DNA of 64,000 nt, taken from contig JAPEUD010000071.1 in assembly GCA_026026165.1 (NCBI GenBank), positions 1 through 64,000 of the forward strand, given 5' to 3'. Source of the DNA: Sarea resinae (Eukaryota). A program made the translations under genes and the position numbers. Below, in pieces: positions 50,362 through 61,794 of the stretch (position 1 is the first letter of the stretch; each line of letters begins with the position of its first letter). The notes under the pieces are model-generated. The model saw nothing but the letters and a program-made list of their open reading frames with translations, ran no database searches and was not told the DNA's origin.

Positions 50362-53300
50362 CTACGCCTTCCTCGCCCTGAACAATCCCAGACTAAGACT
50401 GGTGTCGTTGATACCCACATTAGGCGTAGGTTCGGGTAATATTTCCCACGGCCGCAGATGAAATGGCACGAGGTTCCCTGCGCCTTCTCCTGACGCTCCT
50501 CCTCCAGCGACTGATGCTCCGGCTGCACCGGCACCATTCGAGCGTGATGAAGTGGATGTGGTGGTATGAGCAGCAGACGATCTTGCGAAGAGCCAATCGC
50601 CTGGTTCCGGGATGGAGGCGTACAGATATGTGAGGCGCGGATCTTGCGGGTTGTGCTGTTTCAAGAGCGTGGCTATGTGGTTGTGCGTGTCTTGTGGGAG
50701 GTCTATTTTTTATGTCAGCCAACCGACCATCGCCAGTCTAGAAGCGGAGACATACCATCTGACAAGGCCGCCGCGACGTCGAATATATACTCAACAAGCG
50801 CATAATCACTCTGAAGGTGTGGATCCACGAGGAGTGCAACAACGGCTAGTGATAGGCGAATTTGGGCTTCCGAGTCTGGCGCATTGGCGTTAATGTTGGT
50901 GCTGTTTGTGGGATGTAATGCTGTCGTGGTGCCGCCCGAGGGACTACTTGTAGACGAAAAGATGCGACCATGAATGATGATGAGGCGGAGAAGTATAGTA
51001 ATCCTTCTCCGCGTTAGTATGTACTTGGCGGGCAATCATGTGTACCGGAGCTTACCATAGACGAGGATTCGTTGGCTCACTTGTGCTCTGTAGGGCAGAG
51101 GTCTGGGAGTCGAGTAGACTCTCAAGAGCGTTCAGCTTGGCTGTGATGATGGGGGCTAGCTGCCAAACTTCAGGGCCGTTGACGCTATATGCGGTGGCTT
51201 CGATGACAGCAAGATATCTGTTCATCAGTGCTTCGGTCAAGGCCTGGCCGTCGTCGGCGGAGGCGGTCGCTGTCTCACGGCCATTTGGTGCGCCAGCTAG
51301 GAGTCGCTCCACAGCGTGTTCGTGGATCTATGATAATCAGTATCGAACCATCTCAGAAAAAGGCTTCCGACCTACCTGGCGCTCCATCCGCTCATCGAGG
51401 ATCGTCAGCAGACTGGCCCAATGCGAACGATCACCATCCTCCTCCGACTCAACGGCATCAAAGAAGGACCTGATCATGCTATCGGCCACTATGGCATAGG
51501 CTTCCGAGTCCGGCTTGCAGTCCCTCGCAAAAACGAGTTGGAGTCTCAATTGGCAGATTGGTAGGTTGAAGTCATCTATCATTTGTACGATCTTGATAAT
51601 CTCTCCTTCCGACTCGGTGTTTTTGAGATCTAGAATGGTCAGTCCAAAATACACGCAGCAGATGTTGGAAAGAAATACCGTGGCATTGTTGAGGATCGAG
51701 AAGATGGTCAAACATCTCCTTCGTGTACGCCGCAACAATCGATGGCGCCGATTCTAGACCCGTAATGAGTTCCGTTTGAACTGCAGCGCTATAATCGATC
51801 ACAAGCTTCTGGGCCATGGAGATGAAGGAAGGGCTTGCCAAAAGGGACTCAAGCTTTGATCTTATATCCTCGTCTACGCTCGCAGAGCCTTGACGAATGG
51901 CCTTGCGTATGACGTGGAACAACTCATGCGGATTATCTGCCATAAAGCGTTGCTGTTCCAGTTTGAAGCGATACGATTCCTTGAAAGTCAGTAATGATCG
52001 CCATCAACAATAGACCGATGAACCTACATAGTCGTGAGGGCCGAGATCCAACAAGACGGCGCTCGTCGTAAAGATAGCTAAAGTCTCCAAGGCCACTCTG
52101 GCTGCTGTGGAAGAATCTCCGGATAGAACACTGGTCTCGAAAGTCTTTGCCGAGCACATTGCCACGGTGCTGAAAGTGATGCAACCTGAGCTGATGAGAG
52201 GCTTGAGCACCATGGAGAAGTTTGGTCGAGTTGTAGAGACCAAAACTTGGCCTAACCATCGGACGATGAGTTCATCAAAACTTTCTAGATTGACCAGTCT
52301 CAACTTTGACAAGGATGCTCCGAGACCACTAGGGGGCTCCTCATTTTTTGTCCAATAAGAGTCCATCTTTCCTATGATAGACTCGAATAATCGAAGAAGG
52401 CTATGCTTATCCATGCTCATGCCACTCGATAGCAGTCGCTCGATATCTTCGCTGAAGTCGGAATCTGCGGATTGCAGAGCGTCTACGACATGATCGGACA
52501 CAGGCGAGCAAGCTGCAACAGCCGGCCTTTGGTTCTGCTGCTTGAGATCCTGGAACAAGAGCTGAGTGTTCCCCTCCTCCCCGGGAATCCGAGAACCTAA
52601 TCCAATGAGTGACACGAGCAACAGTCTTTCGGGTGACTGGCCAGTCCTGAGAGACTTATAGCGTTCTAGCACTCGCTCGAACAAGTCTTTCCCAGCGCCG
52701 ATAGCAGCAAAGGTTTCATAGTGGCAATTGAGGGTGTCTGCAATCGATGCCAGTATCACAGGGTCCTCGGAGCTAGCGACAGCTTGGAGGATATCTGCGA
52801 GCATCGAAAAGTCCTCCAGATCCTCTTCGAGAATTGATCTCACGAGGTTGAATTGAGATAGGGTGATGCCTGGGCCATTGGGAGCCATCGTATCCTTGGG
52901 ATCATATCTCGAAATACTACTATTCTATCAGCTGTTGAACATACCGAATGGTACCCAAACTTACTCATATTTTTGCGGGTGATAGCGGACCACTTGCTCT
53001 CGTAACCACCTACTGATTTCAGCCTTCACTGCCCTGCTTGTGGTTGAAAGTCCAGGGGGTATTCTTGCTAGATCGGCTTGACCTATTGGAGCCTCAGTCG
53101 TGTATGACCCTGAAAATCGCTTCAAAATTGATGCTTTTGCTTCATTGATGGCTTGTGTCTCTGTCTCTAGATGGAACCCTGCCTGTCCGAGGAGAGTCTG
53201 TCTGAGATTCAATACGTGCGCTGGGAGGCCGTGCGAGGGTATCTCGGCAAGGAGGCGAACATCGCAAGGATCATTCTGCAACGTATTAGAGTACATGTGA

Positions 53301-55508
53301 TGTGAAGAATAATCTCTGACACCTACAAGACTTAGCTGGTGATAGCCCCGAAGAGCACCTGTTGCAATCAGCCATTCAAGATAATCTCCAACGCGAAAGT
53401 GTCTGGATCTGATAAGCTCAGATATCACGTGGTAGACATTGTTCTTTTCGAGTCCAGCGAGTTCCTTGGAATTGGAAAGGAAGTTCATGAGCGCATATTG
53501 GATGCTAGTGCCGCTCCTGCTCCAGAGGCGAAGGAGGCGCGCAGTAAGGTATATTCGGTACATGCCATGTCTGTATGGTGAAGAAGCCCATTCCAAGAGG
53601 ATAAGAATGACCCCCTGGTCGCTTAGGCCGGTAGATGAACACAGCGCGGAGAGATGTCCGAGATGAAAGGGGGGGCTGGCGCTGTCAAGGATTTGAATGA
53701 TGCGGCGACGTGGAGTATCTCTGCAGACTCTTGATCTCAGTGAACCGCTAGAAAGACGGTCGAGCCGCCGGTGCCAGTCCTGTATAGCAGGAGCCAGTGG
53801 CTCGAGCGCTGGCAAAGATTCAGGCCAGATTTCTGGCAAATCGAAGCAGCCACCCCGAGATATGCTCAGCCTGGTCACAAGTTCCGACAATCGCGTTACG
53901 ATGGGGGCCAAAACGTCATTATCTTCGCTGGTTGATGCCTGCGACTCCTGAATTAGCTTTACGGTGGATTTCTGATAGGCTGGCCGCCCACCTTGTGGAG
54001 TTTGGAAAGCAGTGCCTCGCCAAGGCGCTTCTCATAACGGCGATCGCGGATCATATCTTCCCAGTAGATCTGCAAGATAAGAAGCCAGATCGGGATCGTA
54101 TCGGGCGTTGATCCTTCCAGAGATTTGAGGATAAAGTTCAGGTATTGTCTCTTATCTAATAGACATTCGGCGTAGAATTGTGATGATAGTCGTATGCTGT
54201 GAAGAACGCATGTTAGCAGATACTCCCGATGACAGAGTTGAGAGAAATTGAAAATCCTTACACATAAGTGACCCGGGCTTTCCAATTAGGAGTGCCGCAA
54301 TCACTGATGACGTGGTCGATGAACTGCTCGACAAAGAGAGTCCAGTCCCGGATATATTTTGCCTCACCTCCCATAGCGAAAGCTCCGTTGACTCCTTTTC
54401 TTTTGAAAGCGCGTATCTCATTCGCGCCGACGCATTTCGCCAGCCAAACGGCTCTCGAGGTGGGAATGTTCTTGCTTAGACACTGCTCCAATAGGACTTT
54501 GCCCCTGATCCCATGGGGAATGGTTCGGCTGAGTCGGCGTAGAGGAACGGTGCAGTTGGCCAAATCCCGAAGCCATGCTTCCCGTTTGGAGTCGGTCAAG
54601 GTAACCCTCGGTGGTGGCTTGAAGGTGGAAGGGGCTGTCACCCGATCTCGTTCCTGCCGTTGCTCCAACACCGAGACGAACAGCGACGATAATGTGTGCA
54701 CTCCTGCCTTGTGCTTGAAGATGGGTAACAACGCTGGCTTTGCCGTGCCCGTTTCACTCTGTGACACTGGGGGCTTGTCGTAGAAGCCTTGCTTGGTAGC
54801 ATTTTCGGAGAGGACGTCTTCGGCATGGTTTCCGGTCCAGGGGAAAAAGTCAGAAGTTTCTAATATCAATCAGCACTGGCATTCACCGTCGGGCAGGCTG
54901 CGGGAAGTCTTACTGTGTTTTGAGAGGTGAGGCGCGGTTGGAGGAGGCTCTAGAACGTAAGGCTTCATCGATGGGGTTTCCTTGGTCGCTTCACGCCCCG
55001 CTCGCAACTCTCTTCGATCCTTCTGTCCCTTCCTACCTCGATACATCGATGGCCTCAGAGGCAGTGGAGGAGGAGAGCGCGGTCCCGACGAAGGCACTGC
55101 TGGCGTATCTTCGGCGGCCTTTGCTGCTGACGGCGTCTCGCCATCATGGCGAAGTCTCCCAACGTTAGCAGACGTTTGGACCTTCGCTGGCGCCTGCGAT
55201 GCTTCCCGTCCCTCACTGTCTCCGCGACCGCTGCCGGGCTCATGTTGGGCTTTCACTTGTGCGAGTTTCGGAGTCGTGATGGGCGCTACCGTGGGACGGG
55301 GCACCTGCTGCTTGGAAGAAGCACGAACATCGACGACCGATTGATCGGCATCCAAGGTCAGGTCAATGATGGTCTCCGGTGGCCGTCTCAGGCCATTGCC
55401 CGCCGGGCGAGCAAAAGCGCTGGCTCGACCTGGGGCCTTTGCGATTGCGCCTCCGCCGAGCGGGGGTGGGTGAGGCCGTTGTATCCCCCCAGCAGATCGG
55501 GAAGTCAT
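50362..55508 (-). CDS. SRB8: Mediator kinase-module subunit Med12 (Srb8), multi-exon
   Basis: Med12 N-domain DFFPWTGNHAED..FKPPPRVTLTDSKREAWLRDLANCTVPLRRLSRTIPHGIRGKVLLEQCLSKNIPTSRAVWLAKCVGANE and C-terminus PFHLRPWEILPEPTPNVGINDTSLSLGLFRARKA*. Start ATG at 55508 inferred. Confidence 0.92.
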
Positions 55509-57681: not shown

Positions 57682-60600
57682 TCATCTTTTCCCCTTCGAA
57701 GACCTCAGACTAACTTTCCTTCCACCCCTTCCACTATCGCCACCTGTACCAGATTCCCTGACTCGCCCACTCCTCCGTTTCTGGACCCAACCCGGTCCAG
57801 TAGGTAAGCCGATGCTGTCGCTATAGTCGCCATCATCATTGTCGTCGCTCATGAGTAGTGCTGGTGGTGGTGAAGGAGGTGGAGGTTGGACGGGGTCACT
57901 GGACATTGTGAGGTCGATTACAGGAGCTGTTTCTGCTGATGAAGCGGGTGCGTGGTTGGTTGCGTGTAGAGTCACAGGAGCTGGTGCTGGGAGGGCATCG
58001 TCGTCAGCGGCGTCATCAGACTGGTCGTCGTGGACACTGCTGACGGAGTCGCGGCGTTGGTGATGAGAGGGAACGTCCGTCTTTCTTGTTGTGACTCTGC
58101 CGTTGTAGGGTGGTGATGAGGTCGTGATGGGTGGAATGGCTTCTTCTTCTGCTTCTGCTCCATCGCTGTCTTCGTCCTCTCTCCCGTCCGACGACATGCC
58201 GATGGATGTGCGAGCGGTTGAGAAGACGGCGTCGAGGGTGGGCAGTTCGTTATCCGAAGAGGCGCCATCTAGCTGGGGTCTAGATCCAAACTTTCTTGTG
58301 GGGGAATTTCGGGCTTGAGGCTGTACTGTTTCTGTTGCTGCCACGGCTACCGGATCAGGTGTGTCGGAGAGGAACAACGATTCGTGAACGGCGGGAACCG
58401 AGCGAGGCATATTCACAGATTCGTCCTCATCTGCCTCTCTATTCTTGATGTCGTCGACAGCGGGAGAGATAGCTCTTGACAGGGAGGGAATGGCAGTTAC
58501 TGCATTAAGACTACGACCATTTGTAATCTCGCTAGCGATGTTGGAGACAGCATTGCGTGACAAAGAATTTGACGATGGACTCGAACCGTGCAGAGACTCG
58601 GAAGCTCCAGCATAGCGAAACGCCGATGAAGGGCTTTCCTCCACCTCCATATCGTCATGGCTATCGGATGGGTATGTTCCATTCGCCGCATATCCCTGCG
58701 ACTCGTCCGTCGAGAGCGGACTCGCCGATCGGCTCTCGAGACCCCGGGCGAATGTCTGATCGATAATAGCGATACCTGAGCCAACACTGGACCGAAACCC
58801 CGCGTCCCTCATCAAGTCGGAATATTCATGCTGAGCCTCCTGCGTGATCGAGATCGGATCCGCTCCACTATCGCCCTGGTTGTTTTCATCGCCGCTGTTA
58901 GCTTCGATCTCAACTGCTGGAGAGACGATTCGATCATCTGCTGTACCTTCTGCGTGCTCGCTCTGGCCAATTACCTCACTCGAAGGGTCTTGCGGTGCGG
59001 AAGAAGGTTCGTCTTCAGCCGCACCTAAGAGCTTCGGATCGATAAGCTCGCCGAAAGGAAGCTCGAGAAAGCCGGCGTCTTCGGTTCCGTCGTCGTCGTC
59101 ATCGTCGTAGCCTGGCATTTCGAATTTGCCGTAAATTCTCTGTCCGGTCTCCTCATCGAACGCTCGCTCTGACTGGGGCCGGTCGCGCTTGGCGAGTCTC
59201 ATGTTCAAAGTCCCGTCTGCGAGGATCACTTCCACCTTTGATGTTCGATAGACTGAAATCTTGGGTTGCCAGCCCGTGGCTTCAGACATGTCGAGCTGCT
59301 TGAAGGTGATTACCGAGCCGGGCTGTATATCGTCCAGGCCGATGGTTTTGTATGTAGAAATGTCTGCTGGTACCGCAGGAAGGTCATCCACTCCAGGGAC
59401 ACCAGCCGAAAGCCCATCAGCATCCATCATCAGTTGACTGTTGATAGCATTTGCGTCTTGATCACTGTCAACTCGTCTGACTTTGGGTTGGAGTCCAGAC
59501 TCTCCTGGCTCATCGTAATTGAGTTCTTCGATCGCATCCTCATAATGTCCGTTCATCTCATGACCGTCGTCGTAGCCTTCTTCTTCCTCTTGATAGTAAC
59601 TTGACTGGTTCCTCTTGCGTTTCTTTCCTTTGCCGCCTCTGCGAGCGGATCTGCTGCTCGAGTATTGCTGCTGCGGATCCCAGCGCTGAACGAACGGGAA
59701 AGGTGGAGCGCTTAGTTCGACGCCATCCTCACAGCACTCCACAGCCTTCAGAATTATCTTCTTTTCCCATTCGCCATCTCCATCTTGCAACTGCTGACCT
59801 GGGGCAAGTTCGACATTTCCAGCATCATTGGTGGTATTATCGTCCGCTTTCTCGGCCACAGCGTTCTCTGTATCTTGCTTCCCCTTCGATCCTGGCCTCG
59901 CATTTTTCATCAAACCCTGCTTGATCTTCTCCTCCTCCTCCTTGGTCTTCGGAGTGCGGAGGCCTAATGAGCTGAAAAGCATGCGCCGAGAACTACTAAC
60001 ATTGAGAGTAGCACGGCGGCGTGTTGGGGCTACTACATTTGATTCGCCAGAGGTGATCGTATCAGATGTTGAAGATGCAGGGCCGTCAGCATGCGGTGCT
60101 ACATTCTGATGTTCTGTTGCCTCCTCAGGAGCCTCTTTTGTCGCTTTAGCAGTCGTGATTGGTTCTTTAGAATCGCGCGTTTTCTGCCTCTTCTTCTTCC
60201 CACTACTCGGCTCGACTTCAATCCCACCCGAAGCGATGTCTCCTAACAACTTTTGCCGTCTGGCTTCAAATTCCTCGTCTTCGTTTCGGGTCTCTGATGC
60301 GCTAGCTGGTTCTGTACTTGCATTGATAGGTGTTGATGTACCCGACTGAGCAACTTTGCTGCTTGCAAGGCCAGATATTGAGATGGCAGGTTGCGTGGCC
60401 TTCCACTTTTCGTATTCTTCGCGGTTGGCGTTAGATGGCAAGACACCTTTGCTTTTAAGAGCCTCGATTTTCCGGTGGATTCTTCGCCTCTCGTTCCGCT
60501 TCTGCGTTGCACGTTCTCCTTGGCCAGGTGGCTTTACTGATGCTGACTTCTTGGTTGGTGTTTCCTGCGGTCTCGTTGGCTCCAATTCTTTTTCGGCTGG

Positions 60601-61794
60601 CTCTTTGGCCTTCACGGGAGTCGACCGAAGTTCCGAGCCCTTGGGCTGTGGAGGTAGACGAGAAGAGAGTTGTTCAGGCTCGGAATCCGATTCTGATTCC
60701 GATTCCGATTCCGAATCCGAATCCGAGTCTTCCTCTGAAGAAGATTCATTCTCGTCGCTTTCGGAATCGCTGGACGAAGATTCCTCGGCGCTACCGCTGT
60801 CATCGCTCTCGTTGCTTGTGCCAGGCTCATCTTGCGTTCCCTCCTCATCAGTTCCTGCAGCGGCCAAATCATCGGCCATCATCGAATAGTCCCGTTCCGC
60901 CAGCGTTTCATCCTCGTCTGTCCTAAAAGCGCCAATATCAGGATCCAGGCCACTCAATATATTGTAAGAATCCTCAAATCGGACCCCCTTGTTGCTGGAA
61001 TCAGATCCTGTCCGTTCTAGGCCTTGAGATTCGGTTGATCTCTTGGTAAGTGCCCCTCTCAATTGTGTACGCCTCGACCGTCCGATTCCTTCGTCAAGGC
61101 TCTCTGCAGCTTCTAGGCCGGGTGACAAAGTCTCTGGAGATTCTTCTTCATCATCCAGCATTTGTGAGCCATCCTCCTCATCGTCTTCAGAGCCTTCTTC
61201 GGGCGAAAAATCGTCATCTTCGTCCTCTTCGTCATCCAGGTCTCCATCCCCATCAGTGATAGTCAGTTGTCTTTCTCCGAACATCGGCTCGTTGTCAGCA
61301 TCATCATCTCCACCGTAAGTGAGTCTCCTTCGCTTCCTTGGCGGTATTGTAATTGGTGGGCGATCCGCATGTCGAAGAAAAGGCCTGCCAAACGCAACTC
61401 CATCGATCAAGTGCTTGCCATCGGAGGATATTTGATGTCGTCCAGCGAGTCTCCTCATGCGTAGATCGGACGTCTGGAGTGGACGTATTCTGCCTTGTAT
61501 GAGTGGGTGTTAGAGGAAATGCGATTTCAGGACCTACGTGACTTCATCATCATCCTTGAGAACACTTTTCAGCTCTGAAAAATGGAGGCATTCAAATCCC
61601 CGAACCTCGACGATATAATCCTCTAGACCCCAGTCCTCCGCTTCGAGGGGAATGATTCCATTGACCTGGTCCAGTAGTTGCGAGATCGTGTGATTGGCGG
61701 TCGCCGATCCGTGTGTCTGCGGGAGATCTGCAACAATCCAGAGGACCTGGCTGGGGGGCAATTCATGACGGAGCACCGTCAGTCTCAGCCTCAT
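57682..61794 (-). CDS. Coilin-like protein (N-terminal ubiquitin-like domain, long acidic/basic IDR, Tudor-like domain); exons 61794-61538, 61489-57682 (1354 aa)
   Basis: N-terminus MRLRLTV..VLWIV..TISQLLDQV..VLKDDDEVTIRPL. Tudor-like IQPGSVITFKQLDMSEATGWQPKISVYRTSKV..GKFEM..FGELIDPKLL. Intron at 61490-61537. Confidence 0.75.

Follow-up and report, generated by a model that had tools for sequence, protein, structure and literature searches.

Whether filamentous ascomycetes carry a counterpart of coilin, the scaffold of Cajal bodies, is the question raised by a gene at positions 57,682 to 61,794 of a 64,000-nucleotide (nt) stretch of the Sarea resinae genome (assembly GCA_026026165.1, contig JAPEUD010000071.1, positions 1 to 64,000), referred to here as the window. 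To our knowledge, fungi were held to lack coilin before the recognition of Mug174 in fission yeast (2022–2024), and we found no experimental work on a filamentous-ascomycete coilin in the literature searched, one Talaromyces omics paper apart. An initial annotation of the DNA had read this gene as a Pezizomycotina coilin. We find that it probably encodes a Pezizomycotina counterpart of the coilin/Mug174-type nuclear scaffold, in an expanded form. This reading is favoured because its layout of a head, a disordered middle and a coilin-family barrel is the layout of coilin and of Mug174.

Gene model, barrel and head

The gene lies on the minus strand and its two exons encode a product of 1354 amino acids (aa). 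Open frames are seen on that strand at 61534..61794 and 57682..61458/61509. The gene parts, and the two domains on which the comparison with coilin turns, are as follows:

61538..61794, minus strand: exon 1, reading MRLRL...DDDEV(T); codons 1–85 and two bases of codon 86
61490..61537, minus strand: intron of 48 nt, reading GTAGGT...CTAAC...CAG
57682..61489, minus strand: exon 2, including the stop codon at 57682-57684
59023..59373, minus strand: coilin-type Tudor-like beta-barrel, residues ~792–908, its strands 3 and 4 joined by a long acidic loop
61324..61794, minus strand: DUF7357 domain, residues 1–141, spanning the intron; beta-grasp (~1–91), helix (92–101), hairpin and the basic patch PPRKRRRL

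The spliced coding length is 4065 nt (1354 codons and a stop), and the protein length given by the initial annotation proved exact on the two-exon spliced model; the VLKDDDEVTI string that it quoted from the N-terminal region is present across the splice. The DUF7357 profile spans the junction, with positions 1–79 in exon 1 (E 1.3e-30 for the exon 1 translation) and positions 80–131 at the start of exon 2, and the spliced product is letter-identical to a public protein of 1354 aa, P0003 ('hypothetical protein M1819_006351 [Sarea resinae]'). The two-exon model is confirmed by the continuity of the profile and by this identity. The public record does carry the 'hypothetical' label that such a protein had been expected to bear.

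The sequence string first likened to the coilin Tudor domain, QPGSVITFKQLDMS...WQPKISVYR...GKFEM...ELIDPKLL, is found at ~59029-59328, inside the segment 59025-59390 that had been singled out. Residues 652–912 (59011-59793, minus strand) were folded together with 72 relatives, and in the resulting model residues ~792–908 form a barrel of five strands (predicted local distance difference test score (pLDDT) 92–97) with an acidic insertion of ~40 residues between strands 3 and 4. Foldseek returned no match to the barrel model at E<=1e-3. By VIA-align it resembles SH3-like barrels, with scores in a range common for the tool that define the fold class only. The barrels of Spindlin-2B (5lug), the EDC3 LSm domain (2vc8), HTATIP (4qqg) and SMN (4qq6) are 7–14% identical to it, and the ~40-residue acidic insertion sets the present barrel apart from them.

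The barrel was placed by comparison with the Pfam family Tudor_Coilin (PF23086; profile length 105, cut-off 27 bits), the only Pfam family that recurs at this position. At E<=0.01 the family is matched by 15 of the 31 full-length orthologues. An every-third sample of our first match list gave matches in 28 of 40 proteins (all E<=0.011), eight of the 40 reaching at least 27 bits, and most of the 28 matches run from profile positions 4–16 to position 103 of 105. Among diverse representatives at 50% identity, Tudor_Coilin was found in 21/41 at E<=0.01 and in 14/41 at E<=5e-6, which corresponds approximately to the cut-off, with a best value of 3.3e-15. Matches were also obtained for all 21 members of a further set, up to 38.8 bits; this is a biased sample, chosen for a precomputed Tudor_Coilin label. 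At the level of the orthologous group the results support, from sequence comparison, a place for the barrel in the curated coilin Tudor family, the Sarea sequence itself falling below threshold. DUF7357 is present in all 41 of the diverse representatives, and the head and the barrel are thus a fixed pair.

The head meets DUF7357 (PF24054) with 189.9 bits (E 2.2e-56; residues 1–137 against profile positions 1–131 of 131), the Pfam cut-off being 27 bits; we found no mention of DUF7357 in the literature searched. Residues 1–146 were folded with a 37-sequence alignment (pLDDT 80), giving strands at 2–7, 15–20, 60–64, 67–69 and 84–89, helices at 37–47 and 92–101 and a small hairpin at 104–114. As modelled, the head is a ubiquitin-like beta-grasp with a family-specific extension, located at the extreme N-terminus. 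Nowhere is the head more conserved than in this extension of ~50 residues: its hairpin bears a near-invariant GRHQIS.DGKHLIDG..FGRP motif, and across 31 sequences there is no variation at G102, R103, Q105, D109, G110, H112, L113, D115, G116, F119, G120, R121, R125, R129 and P130. The two compact domains of the earlier description are therefore borne out for both of the stretches that were folded, and the remainder of the protein shows only short conserved islands. The structural comparison with coilin that had been proposed came out in part: the head is ubiquitin-like and the barrel Tudor/SH3-like, and among the Foldseek and VIA-align matches listed for the two models no chain is described as coilin.

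Two further residues of the family head are invariant, an arginine in the first strand (R2) and an aspartate just before the last strand (D83). These may be the counterparts of coilin R8 and D79, an assumption made partly from the human sequence. According to PMC9556525, the N-terminal domain of coilin has a ubiquitin-like fold, multimerises via R8 and D79 and binds Nopp140 via R36. Homodimer prediction with residues 1–141 gave 'no answer' (score 0.00), a result that speaks neither for nor against binding. A query of the ESM Atlas with residues 1–141, skipping DUF7357 clusters, placed Coilin_N clusters at ranks 2 and 3 (0.79 and 0.77, below the trust level of the tool), and an 86-column profile of the head gave no match in the PDB at E<=10. 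Since the Pfam family Coilin_N was never matched, we infer the kinship of the head to the coilin N-terminus from its fold, its position and the weak language-model lead.

The order of these parts is the one reported for coilin, in which a ubiquitin-like head is followed by a disordered middle and a Tudor domain (PMC10473218, PMC10494742). Coilin (human COIL and the Arabidopsis protein; PF15862 and PF23086) and the present family both open, at the extreme N-terminus, with a ubiquitin-like domain. Both continue into a long disordered middle that is not conserved and contains basic patches of the nuclear-localisation type as well as serine/acidic stretches, and both have, at orthologous-group level, a barrel of the Tudor_Coilin family. 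According to PMC9666668, structure alone revealed Mug174 to be a coilin homologue. The yeast protein is described as forming Tgs1-dependent nuclear condensates and as binding Tgs1 and U small nuclear RNAs (snRNAs); snRNA capping, splicing, meiosis and quiescence are said to require it (PMC11347179). Judged by description, the Schizosaccharomyces pombe protein and ours share two distal folded domains and a disordered middle with a nuclear localisation signal, and Mug174 too was long invisible to sequence searches (PMC9666668, PMC11347179); they differ in that the function of Mug174 was shown by experiment, whereas the present family is known from sequence and models. Eas1 (SPAC18G6.13) belongs to the Tgs1-Eas1-Mug174 assembly, and its reported likeness to Mug174 is confined to the N-terminal fold (PMC13473130); in fungi, then, the head domain can occur as a module of its own. 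The present protein has both the head and a Tudor barrel and is hence, again by description, nearer to Mug174 than to Eas1.

Linear motifs, tail and family members

Between residues 146 and 660, conservation is limited to short islands, and we judged disorder by composition together with low conservation. The region between the two folds also includes an acidic stretch, and its acidic serine runs are of a kind that could be phosphorylated. The other features of the protein are listed below:

60547..60849, minus strand: acidic serine-rich tract, residues ~300–400 (S 25%, E 23%, D 10%)
59935..60507, minus strand: three conserved islands from a 31-sequence conservation scan, 414–423 (T.KRN.RRR), 493–508 (FEA.R..LL..IASGG) and 580–604 (SSRR.LF.SLGLRTPKTK)
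59662..59763, minus strand: KKIILKAVECCEDGVELSAPPFPFVQRWDPQQQY, residues 662–695, the most conserved linear motif of the family by alignment
59602..59655, minus strand: basic patch SARRGGKGKKRKRNQS, residues 698–715, with a conserved KKRKRN core; conservation island at 708–715
57685..59010, minus strand: tail after the barrel, residues 913–1354, 442 aa, Ser/Asp-rich (S 16%, D 10%, E 7%, K 2%, R 6%)
57892..57924, minus strand: PVIDLTMSSDP, residues 1275–1285, nearly invariant, with D1278, L1279, T1280, S1282 and D1284 in at least 90% of sequences
57781..57804, minus strand: C-terminal motif PTGPGWVQ, residues 1315–1322, conserved in family alignments

The Ser/Asp/Glu tract noted in the initial annotation is thus found upstream, at residues ~300–400, and the tail that it put at ~450 aa measures 442 aa. 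Basic patches of the nuclear-localisation type are conserved at residues 137–143 (PRKRRRL) and 708–713 (KKRKRN). Across 73 sequences W660, V669, E670, C671, P682-F685 and Q687-Q693 are invariant; in the barrel model the AVECC...PPFPFVQRWDPQQQ motif to which this region belongs has a pLDDT of 55–63, adopts no confident fold and is not docked on the barrel. PVIDLTMSSDP is, from its pattern, a putative motif for interaction with the small ubiquitin-like modifier (SUMO). SUMOylation of coilin is reported to regulate Cajal body formation (PMC11827600).

The family is large. A search with the barrel region gave 933 clusters at 90% identity (E<=1e-3), and an exhaustive search with the head profile gave 604 representatives at 50% identity (E<=1e-3), 481 of them at E<=1e-10 and 285 at E<=1e-30, the best 150 of the 604 all lying at E<=5e-44; we therefore put the size of the family at no less than 604 clusters at 50% identity. 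Its proteins are 660–1900 aa long, tails are found across the family, and named members come from lichen-forming fungi, Pseudogymnoascus, Xylona, Morchella, Dothistroma, Apiospora, Alternaria, Pyrenophora, Bipolaris and Parastagonospora. The last four genera, which we take to be Pleosporales, and allied genera (P0126-P0155 and similar) have a short form of ~660–740 aa that retains the head, a PPFPF..WDP motif and a more divergent barrel. Tudor_Coilin is matched by 5 of the 37 sequences in the alignment that holds these short forms, an alignment in which N-terminal fragments without the barrel are also present. An N-terminal search restricted to proteins of <743 aa gave 360 matches, and the 120 listed all carry DUF7357.

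Several members depart from this plan. Six lichen-fungus proteins (P0007, P0052, P0060, P0072, P0077 and P0107) are annotated with an RPA43 OB domain (PF17875), sometimes together with SHS2_Rpb7-N, on the N-terminal side of DUF7357; these fusions probably arose where the gene caller joined neighbouring genes. When the RPA43 parts of the relatives were compared with the window by tblastn nothing was found, and an RPA43 fusion is accordingly no part of this locus. Further domains, some of them perhaps products of gene-model fusion, lie in the tail of other relatives or are fused to them: P0043 has a UBA-like domain at 770–809, an RPT domain (PF13446) is present in P0004 and P0008 at ~1150–1306, one family representative has a BRCT domain and another GTP cyclohydrolase II. 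P0250 (599 aa) matches the family at E 1.2e-57, although its record reads 'MAG: hypothetical protein, partial [Acidobacteria bacterium]'; most likely a contig of fungal origin was placed in a bacterial genome bin. In the set P0138, P0139 and P0162, the names given to Pyrenophora members ('Nop14 multi-domain protein') and to an Apiospora member ('clumping factor b protein') look like low-complexity artefacts.

Downstream of the coilin-like gene, and likewise on the minus strand, its neighbour is a Mediator Med12/SRB8 gene (52007-54869), with a Med12 match at 54261-54869 (E 3e-30) and an SRB8 ARM-like domain at 52007-52924 (E 1.5e-42).

Coilin counterpart or separate nuclear hub

A number of observations weigh against a coilin counterpart. 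The window protein itself scores 13.1 bits against Tudor_Coilin (E 0.12, profile positions 16–49 only), below the 27-bit cut-off, and 12 of the 40 and 20 of the 41 sampled relatives are without a match to that family. Should the seed of PF23086 include this fungal family, the matches would reflect curated membership and offer no independent bridge to animal or plant coilin. Coilin_N (PF15862) was matched in 0/31 sequences at E<=0.01, 0/37 at E<=10 and 0/41 at E<=0.01, noting that HMMER filters conceal most matches above E ~0.1. The Tudor domain of coilin ends the protein, whereas here the barrel is followed by the 442-aa tail, and with 1354 aa the protein is more than twice the length of coilin, given as ~80 kDa (PMC11347179). 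An RGG/basic patch had been described before the barrel: SARRGGKGKKRKR does lie upstream of it (residues 698–710) and holds one RGG, but the family consensus has no RG run, so that the conserved RG box of the comparison with coilin is missing. Finally, Aspergillus nidulans is stated to lack canonical Cajal bodies (PMC11964246).

The coilin identity first proposed therefore stands in part. The group membership of the barrel in PF23086, the ubiquitin-like N-terminus and the coilin layout speak for it; the protein's own sub-threshold score, and the lack of a Coilin_N match in all 109 scans, do not. With the coilin criteria mixed in this way, we describe the protein as an expanded variant of the coilin kind and not as a plain member.

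Some of these differences are what would be seen if the gene encoded a distinct fungal nuclear hub, with a nucleolar, chromatin or SUMO-linked job, that shared only a domain with coilin and had a generic ubiquitin-like head. The head has a Pfam family of its own and carries the conserved ~50-residue extension that coilin lacks, and the architecture differs in total length and in the tail; yet the sequence of ubiquitin-like head, disordered middle and coilin-family Tudor domain is the defining layout of coilin and Mug174 as described (PMC10473218, PMC9666668), and among Pfam families Tudor_Coilin alone recurs at the barrel. Conservation is strongest in several linear motifs, invariant here, that have no known coilin counterpart (GRHQIS.DG.HL.DG..FGRP, AVECC..PPFPFVQRWDPQQQ, VIDLT..SSDP and GPGW), which again suits a separate hub. 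So does the outcome of a search of 209–665-aa proteins with a 380-column motif-plus-barrel profile, in which 8000 candidates sharing most words were scored (E<=10 relative to 5.8 billion sequences): all 20 matches were fragments of the family itself (E<=2e-33), with no coilin or Mug174 and nothing of their size. Against this, no second coilin-like gene was met among the sequences of the analysis, in which no genome-wide search was made. On balance we regard a distinct hub as rather unlikely, and a coilin/Mug174-type counterpart as the reading to be preferred.

A chance or compositional resemblance, in which an unrelated disordered protein happens to carry two common small folds, could draw on the sub-threshold score of the window protein and on the full-length family profile, which found only low-complexity serine runs in the PDB, but it is unlikely given the Tudor_Coilin matches of the relatives, and we hold its probability to be very small: proteins 42–55% identical to the window protein over residues 652–912 reach 38.8 bits and, in another sample, E 3.3e-15, and their matches cover nearly the whole profile, always at the homologous position and outside low-complexity sequence.

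Proposed role in filamentous ascomycetes

The practical novelty of the assignment is limited, because the Tudor_Coilin label is already precomputed on many relatives in public databases and UniProt reportedly calls one Talaromyces protein 'Coilin'. In PMC13689312 the name 'Coilin (A0A093VAG7)' is given to a protein of Talaromyces marneffei, which may be a member of the DUF7357 family.

A Cajal-body function of the family protein is argued here purely by analogy with human coilin and Mug174. On that analogy the head would multimerise and may bind a chaperone of the Nopp140 type, the disordered middle would drive condensation and nuclear import, and the barrel would hold Sm/small nuclear ribonucleoprotein (snRNP) cargo. 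Within a focus resembling a Cajal body, the protein might then act with the cap hypermethylase Tgs1 in the maturation of snRNAs and small nucleolar ribonucleoproteins (snoRNPs). Its additional parts, namely the invariant head extension, the AVECC...PPFPFVQRWDPQQQ motif and the 440-aa tail with its SUMO-interaction-like VIDLT sequence, suggest a larger hub with additional partners. More tentatively, it is possible that DUF7357 is the missed coilin N-terminal domain of filamentous ascomycetes and that the family is their enlarged Cajal-body scaffold, equipped with partner-docking modules; we offer this second step as a proposal that may well prove mistaken.

If the family is a coilin counterpart, it provides a concrete gene for studying Cajal-body-like condensates, and the maturation of snRNAs and small nucleolar RNAs, in model moulds and in lichen-forming and pathogenic fungi. 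Its strongly conserved extra motifs point to partners that studies of animal coilin have not revealed. If the fuller proposal is true, moulds, from which canonical Cajal bodies are sometimes said to be missing, would build a body for ribonucleoprotein maturation on coilin, possibly under regulation by SUMO.

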